This document shows positions 24,001-30,000 of a stretch of 64,000 nucleotides of DNA, one piece after another. The stretch's first letter is position 1; each line of letters starts with the position of its first letter. Position numbers: made by a program. The DNA is from an uncultured Planctomycetaceae bacterium (lineage in GTDB: Bacteria > Planctomycetota > Planctomycetia > Isosphaerales > Isosphaeraceae), in contig CAWIAD010000002.1 in assembly GCA_963833985.1 (NCBI GenBank), positions 3,104,001-3,168,000 of the forward strand, written 5' to 3'.

Positions 24001-27000
24001 GGTAAATGGCAGCCAGCGACCAACTCGGATTGCTGAGGCGGGGCTTTCCTGGTAGGGATACGGCCGCTCGATGGTCGGAGCTCGCCCTGACGCTCCGAGC
24101 ATGCACGGAAGCTTGTCGGGCGACCTCACGGCGACGTTGTTGCACATGAAGAACTTCGTTCGGCTGGTACGCTTTGCCTGGCCACATCGCTACCGTTTCC
24201 TGATCTCCGTCGCGTGTGCCGCGATGGTGGCCCTCTTCTTCTTCACCGAGCTGGCGGCGGTGCTGCCGCTTCTGAACATCCTGTTCAAGAGTGAGAACCC
24301 CCAGCGCTGGGTTTCCAGCAAGATCGATGCGGTGGGCGAGCGCATCATTCTTCTTGATGCGCAGGCCGAGGAAGCTCGGAAGTTCCTCAGGGCCGGGGAG
24401 GCCGGAGATCTTCAGGCACCGGAGATCGCGCGTGAGTACCGTGAGCTGGACGACCAGGCTGCCGAGATGCGCAGCAAGCTCAATGAACACCAGCGCGCCG
24501 TGGACATGCCCGATCTGAAAGGGTTCTCGCCGCAGTTTGTCAAGAAAGAGCTGGCCGAGATCGAGGTCCTGCAAAAACGACTCGACATCGTCGACGGCCG
24601 CCTCGCCGAGCTGCGCCGGGGTAGTAACTGGCTCAAGGCCGGCGATCTGGCGTCGATCCGATATCGTCTGGTACAGCTCAAGCAAGAGACAGGAGACGAG
24701 CAAAAATGGCTGGGGAGGTATCAGCGGCTGAAGCCGCTGGTATTCCGCTATCTCCCCTCCGACGCGTTTCGCAACCTGCTGCTCCTGATCGGCCTGGTGA
24801 TCCTTGGCGTGGCCGTCAAGGGGTTCTTCATGTTCCTCCAGGAGGTGCTGGTCGCGGACGTCATGCAGCGCACGCAGTTTGACATCCGCAACCTGTTCTT
24901 CCGCCGCACGATCAACCTGGACCCGGGAAGCTTCTCCGACCAGGGGTCCGCCGAGCTGATGGCCCGGTTCACCAACGACATGGACTCCTTTGGCCAGGGC
25001 CTTGTCACGTTGCTCAGCAAGCTGATCCGCGAGCCGATGCGCGTGGTCTTTTGTCTGAGCGGAGCGCTTTATCTCAACTGGCGGCTCACCTGCCTGACGC
25101 TCGTGGTCGTTCCCATCTCCGCGCTCACCACCGTGCGCGTCGGCCGGATCATGAAGCGCGCGATGAGGCGGTCGCTGGAGAGCATGTCGTCGATCTACAA
25201 GATCCTCCAGGAAAGCTTCCAGGGGATCCGTGTGGTCAAGGCCTTCGCCATGGAGCGGGTCGAGCGCAGGCGGTTCTTCATCGAGACCAAGAATTTCTAC
25301 CGCAAGGCGATCCGGGTGGCGATGATCGACGCCATGTCGGACCCGGTCCTGGAGATGCTCACCCTGGTCACTGTGGCCATCGCGCTGCTCGCGGGATCGT
25401 ACCTCGTGCTCAAGAAGACCATCTTCCTGAGCGTCGGCCCTTTTCACATTCAGCTTGCCTCCCAGGTCATGGCCATCGAGGAACTCTTGACCCTGTACGC
25501 CGTGCTGGCCGGCGCCTCCGACCCGATCCGCAAGCTGTCCAACGTGCATTCCAAGATCCAGCGCGCGGCCGCGGCCGCCGACCGGATCTGTGCCATGATG
25601 GATCGCGAACCGAAGGTCGTGGAGCGTCCCGACGCGATCGAACTGCCAAAACCCCCCCGAATCCTCGAGTTCCAGGACGTTCATTTCAGCTACCCCGGCC
25701 GTCCGCCCGTGCTGCAAGGCATATCGCTGGTGGTTCACCACGGCGAAACGGTTGCCCTGGTTGGCCCCAACGGCTGCGGCAAGACCACGCTCATGAACCT
25801 GCTGCCCCGGTTCTGGGACGTCGATTCCGGGTCCATCACGATTGATGGACACAACATCCGTGACCTGCGTATCCGCAATTTCCGCCGCCAGATCGGCATC
25901 GTCCCGCAAGAGACGATCCTGTTCCAGGATACCATCGCCCACAACATTGCCTACGGGGACCCGACCGCCAGCCGCGACCGTATCATCGAGGCCGCCCAGC
26001 GCGCCTACGCGCACCAGTTCATCACGACCCTTCCCGACGGCTACGACACGCTCATCGGCGAGCGCGGGCACGGCCTCTCCGGAGGCCAGCGTCAGCGCAT
26101 CGCCCTGGCACGCGCCATGCTTCGCGACCCCTCGATCCTGATCCTCGACGAGGCCACCAGCGCTGTGGATATCCAGGACGAGGCCCTGATCCGCAAGGCG
26201 ATCGAGGAGTTCTCGAAGGGCCGCACCACGTTCTTGATCTCGCACAGCCTGGGCACGATCCAGTTCGCCGACCGGATCATCCTCATCGACGACGGCCGCA
26301 TCGTCGCCTCGGGCACCGATCACGAGCTGCGCCGCAACTCGCCCTTGTACCGCCGGCTCTACGAGATCCATTACCAGCGGGGAGCCTGAGAAAGGGCGCG
26401 GCGCTCGCCAGTGGGCAATCGCGACGGTTGGTTCCACGAGATCGCACGGCCGCCGGTCGCGACAAAGTTCAGGAGCCGCGTCGAAGCAGTCAAGCCGCGC
26501 GCATTCATCGACCGATAGGTTCTCTGGTGACGGCTACGCTGCTCGCGCTTCACGATCATGAAGGGTGATGGAGTTCGCCCGACGTTGAACCGCTCCCCCG
26601 GGGGCTGATGACTCCTACTGAAAGGCCGCTGGCCTGACGGTAGGCGTTTTTTTTTGCGCCACGTGCCAGCGGTTCAAGGGGTGTTTTCTTGGACCGACTC
26701 CTGCACAGTCCCTGGCGCATGGGGATGCCGGCTCTGGCGGCCGTGCTGATCGTCCTGGGTGGCAGCGTCGTTGCCCAGGAAGGCCCTGCGCCCGATCCCG
26801 CGCAGCCGGGGGAGGCCAGACGCCTGTCCTTCTGGGAAGTTGCAGGCGAGTCGCTCGCCGGCGAGGCCTCCGTCGACCTCTGGACTCCGCTCTCCTGGCG
26901 CGGTCTCTTCACCGAAGGCTGGAACACTCCGTTTGTCTTCTCACCTCCCAGTGACTCAGGCGCTCTACGGCAGGAGTGGATCAACGCAGCCAACGGAGTA

Positions 27001-30000
27001 TTCTATCGCCAGTGGGTCCTCGATTACGCCTACCACAACCACGTTGGATCACACGGCGATCAACACATCGGCTCCTGGTTCATCTTCGCGCCGCTCAGCC
27101 GCCGCCTGGAAATCCTCTTCACCGTGCCGTTCGTCGATTACAGCCAGGCGGGCGCCGGCAGGAGCCCGAGTACACCGGGCAGCGGTCGCTCCGGCTCTGT
27201 AAATGGGGGAGGAGTCGGACGCTCCGGTAACGATCAGGGCGACATCGGCGATCTCAGCATCACGCCCCAGGTGCTGGTCCACGAGACGCGCAACACATCA
27301 ATCATGTCCATCATGACCATCCGTACGCCCACCGGAAGCCTCGCGCAGGACAATGGCCATACCTCGCTTGGACCGCAGATCCAGTTCTGGCAAGGCCTGC
27401 CCCGCCGCTGGGTGGTCCGGGGCGGTTGCGGCCCCACGATCCCGCTTGGCGATACGGGCCTGCGAACGACTTTCGACAGCAACTTGACCCTGGGCAAGTT
27501 TCTCACCATCGACGAATACCGCTACTTCAAGGAGTTCACGGTCTACCTCGCCGCCAACGCCTCCAGCTCGGTCGATCATCGCGGGCCGAACGCGACCACG
27601 CTCACCCTGCTGCCCGGGCTGCGGTTCCGGGTCACGCCGAATTACTGGCTTCTCTATGGGGTCGAGACCTCCCTGGTAGGCCCGGGCCATGAGGATTACG
27701 GCATGTATTTCCGCCTCGTGCGACGGTTTTGAGCCATCCTGGGGCCGCTTGCTTTCGGCGTGCTCACCGGGCGCCCGCAGCCGTCTGGCGCGGGACGATC
27801 CTGGTAACGCAGCGTCCCGTTGTCGATCTCAAGACGTGCTCGCCGCGCACAAAGCCTGAAGGGCAGGCAGGCAGGGAAGAGGAAAGCATTTCCCGGGTCT
27901 GCCAGCACTCTCCAGGCAAGGTGCCCGGCGCGATTGCGGATCCTGGTCATCAGAGCGCGGCAACGCCTTGCGGACGAACCAGATTCGGGACGGGCAAGAC
28001 CGTTGGCGAGGACGGTACCTCCATCAACGTGCCGTCCGCACCCACGCTGAAGACGTGCAAGGCGTTGGCCTCGGGCGTGGACATGGCGGAGAACTGCTGG
28101 GTGACGACGTGCAGGAAGCTCTCCGTCGGGTCCAGAGCGAACTGGTATCCGCCGGGGTTGCTTCCCGGCGCCACATCAAGATCAATCTTCTGAATCTCGA
28201 CGGGCTGGGACGGGTCGGTCGCGATGTCAAACACCGAGATGCTGGGGTCACCGGTATTGCTGGCGTAAAGTCGCGTGCCTGCCTTGTTCACCAGCAGCCA
28301 GCAGACGCCGTTACCCGAATCGGCAACCGAGCGCAGAAAGTGCAGGCCGCCGATCGGAGTGTACCGGTACACTCCCACCCGGTTGATCGTGACGAAGCCG
28401 ACGTAGAGGAAAGGGCGATGCGGGTGCACCGCCAGGCCCAGCGGCAAGGGCGGCGCGCCCGAGGCCGCGAACTCCATGGGCGGTAACGCCAGGGCGGCTT
28501 GCGGCGCGAGGCGGCCCTTTTCCCCGATCGAGAGGGTACGCAGCAAGCCGCCCAGAAAGTCCGCCCCGAAGAGGAGCCGGCCCGACGGCGAGATGAGCGC
28601 CTGCGAGGGGTTGGATCCCAGATCGTCATAGAGCGTCGAGTTGGGAACCGGACGGAGCTGACCCTTCGGGGACACCTTGAACGAGGTGTAGTTTGGCAGT
28701 GTCTTGCCGGGATGATTCGGGTCATCGTCCTTGTTCACGACGCACAGAATGTCTCCCGCGAGCCCCAGGCTCACGGGGTTCGACCCGCCAGAGGAAAACG
28801 GCGAGCCTGGAACCGGGGTGAGAGATCCGTCGCCCTGGATCGAGAACACGGCGATCGTGTCGGAGCCTCCGTTGACGGCAAACAAGAGCGTGTGCGAGGG
28901 GTTGACGATGATCTCCTGATCCGAGTCGTATGGTCCCAGGTCGAACGTCGGCGTCACGCCCAACCCGGCGGTCGAAAATGGCGAGCCCGGCAGCGGGGAC
29001 AGGCTTCCATCGGCCCCTCTCGTGTATGCCAGGATGGCATTGCCGCCGGGATCGTTGCTCTCCACATAGACGAGGTTCCTTGGTCCCTGAGCCTGGGCCG
29101 TGGCCAACTGGCCAGACGTAACCAGCAGCGCAACAGCAAGCGACGCTAGCAAACACGAGCTGCGCAAGCGAACCACGACCGATGAAACCGGTTGCGGTCG
29201 TTCTGTGACCCGGGCGCTTCTCCTGAAGTTGAACAGCACGGTCGATTCTCCCTCGATTGGAATGATGCGAGATTCCTGGCGAGGCCGGCCCACCAGATGC
29301 CTGGGCGCGGTCAGCGAGCCCGACCACGGGTGGACGCGATTGGTCCGCCGGTGGATGACAGATCAGGGCCGCCGGGAATGAGTCGACCGGCGTGCGGATT
29401 CCTGACAGCGTTCGTGTCGAAATGGCGGCGAAAGGCTCACTCGCCATCGAGCGCGCGGTGGATCCGTGCGCGCGCGTCGGCCGGCAAGCCAGGGCCTGGC
29501 AAGGGCAGGGGAAGGTCCGTGTCCAGACGACTGGCCAGCAGTCGCAAGGAGCGGCTCAAGAGTGCAATTTGCCTCGAGTACCGGCGGCAGGCCGCGCAAT
29601 ATAGAAAGTGGCTTCGAAGGGCGAAACGCTCCGTCGGCGACAGCTCGCGGTCGAGCGACTCGCAGGCCAGGCGAGACATTCCCTCGCAGGGAAGGTTCAT
29701 CAGATGCCAGATCCGGCCGAGAGCGCTCATGCGCGCAGTACGCCTTTCACGGCAGATGGTTTCCGTTTCGAATGGCCGAACCAGTTCGACTCCAGGCATT
29801 GACGAAGCAGTGAGCGTGCCCGATGAAGGCGCTTCCAGAAGTTCGAGGGCGTGATGGCCAGGATCTCCTGGACCTGCTCGGCGTCAAGTCCATCCACCTC
29901 GCGCAGGAAGAACGAGTCGGCGATTCCCCGTGGTAAGTTCTCCAGGCACCGGCCAAAGACCTCCCAGAACTCGCGTGTCTCGATCTCTGCGACCGGATCA

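Follow-up and report, generated by a model that had tools for sequence, protein, structure and literature searches.

The riboswitch and its single barrel gene

The window, a 64,000-nucleotide stretch of an Isosphaeraceae genome, carries at 26555..26624 on the + strand an aptamer of the fluoride riboswitch family RF01734, one of two in the genome, which cmscan detects over the full model (1-64) at 51.4 bits (E 2.4e-11) against a gathering score of 34. Judged from the sequence, its pseudoknot would join 26570-26574 in the P1 loop to the complementary 3′ strand at 26611-26615. An intrinsic terminator follows at 26611..26655 (+; folding energy -26.5 kcal/mol, z -2.88), in which a 5′ arm at 26614-26619 pairs with 26639-26644 to give a long stem around an inner hairpin (26623-26635), and a run of nine T residues occupies 26647-26655; a terminator scan also returned a match at 26632-26645 plus the T-run. 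Since the terminator's 5′ arm shares nucleotides with the aptamer's 3′ pseudoknot strand, the arrangement is that of a transcriptional ON switch, and we read 26611..26655 as its expression platform. The same layout is repeated in all 27 barrel-leading riboswitches that were compared, each with a U-tract. By these features the RNA is a genuine fluoride riboswitch with predicted fluoride-responsive control of the gene behind it, in keeping with the preliminary description, which had listed it as one of two in the genome with its own terminator hairpin and U-run. No sigma-70-like promoter was found in 26380-28000, and no RNA holder is listed for the locus.

The controlled gene (26689..27732, +) opens with a TTG at 26689, 6 nucleotides after a possible ribosome-binding site (26677..26682, +), and encodes 347 amino acids; an alternative ATG at 26719 would shorten the product to 337. 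It forms a one-gene unit, because the next gene, for a lactonase-type propeller (Pfam; 27950..29293, -), is convergent. Upstream and outside the unit lies an ABC exporter gene (24071..26389, +; Pfam ABC_membrane and ABC_tran), which does not appear next to the barrel orthologues in their neighbour lists. As had been noted earlier, the single gene has no match in Pfam or NCBIfam, and its 111 homologues include many with PF13557. For that family the locus protein itself gives no match, two close homologues reach 26.4 and 30.6 bits against a cut-off of 22, and 15-21% of the members of Atlas clusters at 0.98 carry it. No homologue was found in the plasmid collection, and comparing the family profile with PDB sequences yielded nothing meaningful.

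Residues 1-29 resemble a signal peptide and the C-terminal residue is Phe, consistent with a secreted outer-membrane protein. The AF2 model (mean pLDDT 85.2, pTM 0.80) has an ordered N-terminal region at about 41-107, containing a presumed plug, and 12 strands spanning 108-346. Its best structural matches are FapF (Z 21.9, rmsd 2.5, 224 residues aligned) and Pput2725 (Z 21.2), followed by the acidic-sugar porins KdgM (Z 18.9) and NanC (Z 18.2), and the COG4313/FapF fold first proposed for the protein is thereby borne out. The alignments begin at residue 86 for FapF and 98 for Pput2725, and from this range the N-terminal segment is predicted to occlude the lumen, as expected of a COG4313/PF13557 barrel. 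Arg94, Arg107, Arg244 and Arg312 are invariant, as is the Pro-Thr-Gly at 214-216, which together with Asp188 is constant across 86 sequences; by their position between strands these residues probably correspond to the conserved cluster of Pput2725, namely Asp92/Thr94 of the D-x-T motif and Pro119-Thr120-Gly121 (PMC4493636).

Riboswitch linkage among related and unrelated barrels

Nine other genes encode proteins at least 58% identical to the locus barrel, and seven of them have a fluoride riboswitch within 1.5 kb, which sustains the earlier count of seven orthologues (58-64% identical) with the element upstream. In the eighth the riboswitch is 1.8 kb off with a transposase between; the ninth (in G036; genomes are cited by working numbers) is the C-terminal third only, with no riboswitch in 10 kb. 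The accompanying claim, that paralogues at 34-41% identity lack the switch, has to be amended: five homologues at 37-41% (in G075, G076, G030, G064 and G038) carry one 200-320 nucleotides upstream, although most paralogues do not. None was present at 11 low-identity loci, nor at 40 further paralogue loci, where 0 of 43 hits had a riboswitch motif that recovered 13 of 13 known positives. Aptamer and terminator are both kept across 58-64% protein divergence. The distribution of the switched barrel is patchy, and most genomes of the locus’s own genus are without it; transposases lie near some of the loci, and copies in G009, G011, G036, G030, G038 and G043 are interrupted, truncated or frameshifted. 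These broken copies, and the lack of any switched barrel in 19 of the 45 genomes with a riboswitch, indicate that the gene is dispensable. Of the 26 genomes with a switched barrel, 25 also have the fluoride channel gene crcB, as do 99 of 121 family genomes overall; in G035, G039, G038 and G062 crcB and the barrel gene stand no more than about 1-2 kb apart.

Eighty riboswitches of the family were read, and 26 lead an outer-membrane barrel: 15 a member of the COG4313-like family, in two clades, and 11 a porin of the OprO/OprP type. The latter is unrelated to the locus barrel and has the OprP fold (Foldseek E 6.5e-18 to 2O4V; PF07396 over its cut-off). Of the 45 riboswitch-bearing genomes, 26 hold a switched barrel and none holds both types (expected overlap 3.7, with a nominal P of 0.005 that overstates the case because kin are not independent), and in two genera (g11 and g37) the two types occur in different genomes of one genus. 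At a single locus among those examined, OprO/P and COG4313-like genes stand in tandem, an arrangement that is therefore not a rule. The riboswitches themselves are alike across barrel families: for each of the 27 barrel-leading aptamers, the closest riboswitch in front of a different gene family is again barrel-leading (25-31% by chance), and 1 of the 52 other riboswitches is nearest to a barrel-leading one. Hence the barrel cargo behind a single riboswitch lineage was probably swapped. Two COG4313-like clades and an unrelated OprO/P clade, mutually exclusive and behind one riboswitch lineage, lend good support to the original proposal that the barrel is under fluoride control.

Beyond the barrels, family riboswitches also lead crcB, CLC, enolase, Na+/H+ antiporter, USP and formate-hydrogen-lyase-like genes, as well as phosphoesterases and RND/HlyD/OEP parts. 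Outside the family, 151 genomes were sampled from each of the phylum, the class and one sister order, giving 25, 15 and 19 riboswitch loci, none with a match to the COG4313-like or OprO/P profiles; a selection of the downstream frames was scanned with Pfam and the rest were judged by N-terminal sequence. In G485, of the sister order, an AlgE-like barrel stands behind a 61.9-bit fluoride riboswitch.

Net charge of the lumen was considered as a mark of fluoride control and discarded. With inward faces guessed from hydrophobic alternation, which is weak for strands 1, 2 and 12, the values are +2.5 for the locus clade and -1.2 for the second switched clade, against +1.6 to +3.3 in three of four unswitched groups and -0.6 in the fourth. 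Switched and unswitched clades are thus not separated, and there is no fluoride-specific signature.

What the pore may pass

Our preferred candidate, to which we give an even chance, is that the barrel is a low-specificity outer-membrane pore through which fluoride exported by CrcB leaves the periplasm. Fluoride would enter as HF; as it rose in the cytoplasm the aptamer would fold, the pseudoknot would sequester the terminator's 5′ arm, allowing synthesis of the one-gene transcript. Once exported, the product would fold as a narrow, plugged and polar barrel in the outer membrane. The inner-membrane CrcB/Fluc channel, whose gene is elsewhere in the genome behind the second riboswitch, would move fluoride to the periplasm, and the barrel would drain it, as fluoride or HF, to the medium, preventing build-up and re-entry. 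Given how small F- is, a narrow hydrophilic barrel of nearly any kind should suffice, which would explain why two 12-stranded clades, OprO/P porins and an AlgE-like barrel could all serve as cargo. The objection raised at the outset, that general porins would already do the work, is weakened because Porin_1 and Porin_4, the classical general porins, could not be found in the genome, which is 96% complete and stands in 2 contigs. A passive pore, however, would be useful only if F- were higher in the periplasm than outside, and for that the two sides of the outer membrane would have to differ in pH or by a Donnan effect. Also counting against an exit pore, the only characterised COG4313 structure, Pput2725, was interpreted as a channel for hydrophobic molecules and judged unlikely to pass hydrophilic ones (PMC4493636), and the plug of FapF closes its pore (PMC5557850). 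The lumen charges, the general commonness of crcB and the dispensability of the gene weigh on the same side; the repeated linkage to barrels, their mutual exclusion, the shared riboswitch lineage, the nearby crcB genes and the Trp of the switched OprO/P clade at the OprP Arg133 position weigh on the other. Computation shows the riboswitch, its overlap with the terminator, the fold, the linkage, the exclusion and the common lineage, whereas induction in the cell, placement in the outer membrane, the permeant and its direction, and a benefit to the cell are inferred.

The main rival, which we consider unlikely, is that fluoride induces the pore to bring in a protective anion, most likely phosphate, which would buffer the cytoplasm and offset fluoride's inhibitory effect on phosphoryl-transfer enzymes. 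The alternative cargo does belong to the OprO/OprP family, the four invariant arginines of the locus barrel are predicted to face the lumen, the barrel of G030 is followed by two tyrosine/dual-specificity-phosphatase-like genes, and a review links phosphate importers and phosphatases to fluoride resistance (PMC11139923). Yet the switched OprO/P porins do not reproduce the central phosphate site of OprP, described as D94, Y62, S124, S125, K121, K126, R34 and R133 (PMC5877670). At the Arg133 position, mapped by an alignment of 18% identity, all 11 switched genes have Trp and 23 of 25 unswitched paralogues have Arg, a change accounted for by one event on one branch. The switched clade is also without a second conserved Arg that the paralogues keep, and in one low-identity pairwise alignment Lys121, Arg34 and Arg59 are unmatched, with equivalents of Asp94, Arg60 and Glu132 retained. 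Gene order is similarly two-sided: in G106 and G100, of the sister clade to the locus clade (support 0.98), the barrel gene lies 252 bp behind pstS-pstC-pstA-pstB-phoB, but PstS is 87% identical between the two, the link occurs in 2 of 8 sister-clade members and 1 of 40 paralogue loci screened, and no pst gene adjoins any switched barrel or falls in 15 wider stretches around unswitched OprO/P genes. The pst link counts as one event and was set aside. AlgE-like barrels are not known to have a phosphate role, which also speaks against phosphate import.

Less probable again is that the pore restores some other need disturbed by fluoride, either by admitting Mg2+/Ca2+ or further ions that fluoride complexes have tied up, or by making the outer membrane generally more permeable to nutrients in metabolic stress. 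Conserved arginines have been lost in the OprO/P clade and also in the locus clade (at position 194, Arg in 2 of 86 members, as against Arg/Lys in 123 of 140 others), the lumen of the second switched clade appears net negative, divalent-cation transporters are reported near fluoride genes (PMC11139923), and the enolase, phosphoesterase, Na+/H+ antiporter and RND/HlyD/OEP genes behind other riboswitches would suit such a role. Against this, each of the three barrel families has relatives that are polar or carry anions, the locus clade gains Arg314, Arg342 and Arg346, and in the loci examined the barrel genes have no metal-uptake gene linked to them.

The classical COG4313 role, hydrophobic or aromatic uptake, for instance of an organofluorine whose breakdown frees fluoride that feeds back on the switch, is improbable. 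The fold and the PTG motif fit it, and uptake of trichlorophenol and of sphingosine has been linked to characterised members (PMC4493636); but in the loci examined no dehalogenase or ring-cleavage gene adjoins a switched barrel, so that gene context offers no catabolic setting, the inward strand faces are predicted to be polar, and hydrophilic OprO/P porins make an ill-fitting replacement. Least probable of all is the absence of any adaptive link, with a mobile riboswitch cassette landing before barrel genes and spreading by descent or transfer: patchy distribution, broken copies and nearby transposases would suit it, but three separate barrel recruitments to one riboswitch lineage with zero genome overlap, an aptamer and terminator conserved despite protein divergence, and the AlgE-like case in another order do not.

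Returning to the exit pore, we would tentatively, and at slightly worse than even chances, go further: Isosphaeraceae, devoid of classical general porins, may possess an inducible outlet for fluoride in the outer membrane, through which CrcB export would be completed across both membranes. On this view a single riboswitch lineage took on unrelated barrels on two or more occasions, and the OprP type, if no other, was re-tuned by losing a phosphate-binding arginine. Fluoride resistance as described so far consists of the inner-membrane proteins Fluc and CLC-F plus metabolic patches; the same switch lineage before unrelated pores in related planctomycetes points to a putative outer-membrane step in fluoride defence. 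If the barrels are outlets, the periplasm becomes a second compartment to clear in bacteria with tight outer membranes, which would bear on the engineering of hosts for organofluorine breakdown and provide a natural case of a phosphate porin turned halide pore. Should they rather serve the import of phosphate or cations, they would reveal what a fluoride-stressed cell runs short of. On either reading an uncharacterised COG4313-like family gains, through the riboswitch, a first hint of its physiology, and the pairs of switched and unswitched paralogues, one Arg/Trp position included, open the question to direct testing.

Comparison with known systems

The locus shares with the described fluoride riboswitch (crcB motif) regulons a full aptamer and a terminator overlapping its 3′ end, as in an ON switch (PMC2864571, PMC11139923), and differs in having an outer-membrane barrel as the controlled gene. 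The crcB passages of Weinberg et al. 2010 (PMC2864571) name no outer-membrane barrel or porin, and in the 2024 review by Stockbridge and Wackett (PMC11139923) the terms “outer membrane” and “porin” are both absent. The searchable literature on fluoride riboswitches or crcB with outer-membrane channels or porins, on OprP with fluoride, and on Planctomycet- yielded, in its listings and the openings of abstracts, no paper on the pairing and no outer-membrane component for fluoride, though older gene lists may mention porins.

With Pput2725 (4RL8), TcpY and SphA the barrel has in common the 12 strands, an N-terminal segment before strand 1 and the D-x-T and PTG motifs; it is only 12-14% identical to them, has a longer ordered N-terminal region and a predicted polar, arginine-bearing lumen, and sits under a fluoride riboswitch with no catabolic genes beside it. 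FapF (5O65) is the nearest structure, with an aligned region that covers the plug and a PTG in the strand 5-6 loop, but the locus protein has no predicted coiled coil, no fap genes nearby and a one-gene unit. OprP and OprO (PF07396; 2O4V, 4RJW) are the family of the alternative cargo and not of the locus protein; the switched clade departs from them in its Trp, its fluoride riboswitch and its lack of adjoining pst genes. Finally, CrcB/Fluc and CLC-F answer to the same regulatory signal as the barrel, but they are inner-membrane proteins of proven fluoride transport, whereas the barrel is not homologous to them and its transport role is predicted; if the reading is true, fluoride resistance would gain its first component in the outer membrane.

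The riboswitch and barrel at the window locus

The aptamer ahead of the barrel gene lies at 26555-26624 on the + strand (Rfam, 51.4 bits; gathering cut-off 34) and is one of two fluoride riboswitches in the genome, as the preliminary description had it. Its loop at 26570-26574 is complementary to a 3′ strand at 26611-26615, which runs into the 5′ arm of a hairpin at 26614-26644 with nine T after it, in line with the terminator and U-run credited to this riboswitch. The same overlap is described in the passage on crcB RNAs by Weinberg et al., who infer that ligand leads to higher expression (PMC2864571). 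One gene follows, at 26689-27732 (347 aa from TTG, 337 aa from ATG), and the next is convergent; a tRNA gene lies elsewhere in the window (36528-36601, - strand). Behind the genome's second riboswitch (L007:7430-7726) comes a short fragment, just an N-terminal remnant resembling the start of the dynamin-like genes of relatives, and after it crcB and a double DUF190 gene. A CLC gene (C2:647737-648812) lies in two frames, through frameshift or assembly error.

The barrel has no match in Pfam or NCBIfam. Its homologues number 111, about 85 of them at 52-71% identity, and a profile search with the family finds 647 representatives at E<=0.001. By genome, the profile matches 50 of 73 in Isosphaeraceae versus 6 of 227 others of the class and order, which places the barrel mainly in this family. 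The AlphaFold2 model (86 sequences; pLDDT 85.2, pTM 0.80) has twelve strands over residues 108-346, with an ordered region ahead of them from about residue 41. FapF (E 5e-7) and Pput2725 (E 1.2e-6) are its top Foldseek matches, and VIA-align also puts them first (FapF Z 21.9, rmsd 2.5, 224 aligned; Pput2725 21.2; KdgM 18.9; NanC 18.2), in agreement with the fold proposed earlier. Asp188 and Pro214-Thr215-Gly216 are invariant in the alignment; judged by position, together they correspond to the conserved cluster of Pput2725 (PMC4493636), and the latter three to the PTG of FapF (PMC5557850). By fold and motif, the predicted protein is best filed as a distant COG4313/PF13557-like barrel. Many orthologues (L011-L016) start with an extended N-terminus in which Gly-Cys comes behind a hydrophobic segment; we take this to resemble a lipoprotein signal, and it is absent from the window's protein.

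Barrels behind fluoride riboswitches in relatives

Across 121 Isosphaeraceae genomes, with 39 candidates scored in each, the search returned at least 82 riboswitches in at least 45 genomes, and downstream DNA was examined for 80 of 82, two below cut-off being left out. Fifteen of the 80 lead the window's barrel family. Ten precede barrels of the window's own group (in its own genome, G000, and in G024, G028, G029, G035, G039, G043, G117, G011 and G009); in G011 a transposase sits between switch and barrel, and in G009 the barrel gene is truncated. The other five (G030, G064, G075, G076, G038) precede barrels 37-41% identical to the window's. Thus the statement that paralogues lack the switch fails for these five but holds for most, with none at 43 matches in 40 paralogue loci, by a screen that recovered 13/13 known positives. 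In the tree, which took in four placeable second-group members and left out G038, G009 and G036 as too fragmentary, the window's group (support 1.0) and the second group (0.99) are separate clades with unswitched genes between. In G075 and G076 the barrel genes are tandem (L062:5378-9034; L063:17-2591), with a riboswitch at the downstream copy only. One COG4313-like paralogue (L009:8243-9285) is split over two frames by frameshift or assembly error, and in an unswitched clade a small secreted Cys-containing protein is consistently next (L008:10240-10641; L192-L195, L199-L201, L203).

Eleven further riboswitches lead an unrelated barrel, a PF07396 OprO/P-type porin (G033, G041, G045, G046, G048, G062, G065-G068, G094) whose model has OprP as top match (E 6.5e-18). 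OprO/P homologues occur in 117 of the 121 genomes; among the best 30 loci the switch stands at the top 11 (>=54%) and at none of the next 19, and the switched genes form one clade. No genome has both switched kinds against 3.7 expected among 45, a nominal P of 0.005 that is overstated, kin being non-independent and many genomes incomplete. Among the matches listed, the barrel is the sole target above cut-off in 16 of the 26 genomes with a switched barrel.

The riboswitches themselves are akin. By pairwise alignment scores rather than a tree, 27/27 barrel-leading aptamers have a second barrel-leading riboswitch as their nearest match before a different gene family (chance 25-31%), and 1/52 others have a barrel-leading nearest neighbour; in 10/10 genomes carrying barrel-leading riboswitches alongside others, the former score higher against a barrel switch from elsewhere than against the remaining switches of the same genome. 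A U-tract follows the same division (27/27 versus 18/52). Because this kinship crosses unrelated barrel families, the simplest reading is that one regulatory element has probably exchanged its cargo at least twice. The sister-order sample contained one AlgE-like barrel behind a riboswitch (G485, 61.9 bits; Alginate_exp E 3e-88), outside this lineage.

Other targets were seen. The first gene behind a riboswitch is often that of a dynamin-like GTPase (Dynamin_N; L051, L052, L055, L073, L078, L088), and fluoride islands gather 2-4 riboswitches within ~20 kb (L051, L052, L053, L054-L055, L056, L057; L159 in G360), with enolase, a calcineurin-like phosphoesterase, a PEP-utilising enzyme, HIT and NUDIX proteins, a double cytidylate-kinase-like protein, a Na+/H+ exchanger, a SulP permease, crcB and DUF190 as targets. 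Genes of OEP, HlyD/RND-adaptor and AcrB type likewise stand behind riboswitches (L084, L090, L091, L160, L178, L254, L266); these are parts of tripartite efflux spanning the outer membrane.

What the switched barrels may pass

The preliminary description proposed a channel by which fluoride or HF leaves the periplasm after CrcB, and the odds that switched barrels are such exit pores are about even. Unrelated barrels appear interchangeable, which would fit a solute so small that it hardly requires a binding site. Moreover, 25 of 26 switched-barrel genomes carry crcB, versus 99 of 121 overall, with ~1-2 kb between it and the barrel in four, and neither Porin_1 nor Porin_4 was found in the window's genome, so a constitutive large pore should not be assumed; this genome has three unswitched OprO/P-type and two more COG4313-like genes, one frameshifted. 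However, a passive pore would help only if fluoride becomes trapped in the periplasm; a switched barrel is missing from 19 of 45 riboswitch-bearing genomes; assembly error may account for some of the six broken copies, but broken they are as read; and the Pput2725 report judges that protein a channel for hydrophobic molecules (PMC4493636). Switched and unswitched groups cannot be told apart by the net charge inferred for the lumen.

Import of an anion such as phosphate is unlikely. The alternative cargo does belong to the OprO/P family, a review passage links phosphate importers to fluoride resistance (PMC11139923), and two sister-clade barrel genes lie 252 bp behind pstS-pstC-pstA-pstB-phoB (L164:6077-11999, L185:1440-7300; two genomes, one genus), but the pst link goes back to a single event and is present in 2 of the clade's 8 members. 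Moreover, 11/11 switched OprO/P genes have Trp where 23/25 unswitched paralogues have Arg, not counting the second, unswitched copy of the G062 island (also Trp), and a second Arg is also lost. The change occurred once, at OprP Arg133 by low-identity alignment; in OprP that residue belongs to the phosphate site (PMC5877670). In G062, two Trp-clade genes flank crcB-DUF190 (L057:4111-5685, 8226-9944), with a riboswitch detected at one. In the window's clade position 194 is Gln/Glu in 83/86 versus Arg/Lys in 123/140 others, and Arg314, Arg342 and Arg346 are gained. A role in cation or general permeability seems rather less probable still; uptake of hydrophobic or organofluorine compounds is improbable, and that riboswitch and barrels have no adaptive link at all we consider slightly more so.

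Relation to known fluoride systems

At the level of titles and listings, the searchable literature yielded no outer-membrane protein under a fluoride riboswitch. The terms "outer membrane" and "porin" are absent from a 2024 review on fluoride (PMC11139923), and "porin" from eight supplements of Weinberg et al. 2010 (PMC2864571); older lists of riboswitch targets, such as the gene-context data of the latter paper or those of Baker et al. 2012, may still name such a protein. Neither the riboswitch nor the folds are new. The association between them is real and repeated, and the barrels are a new kind of target, of putative mechanism, for a known regulon.
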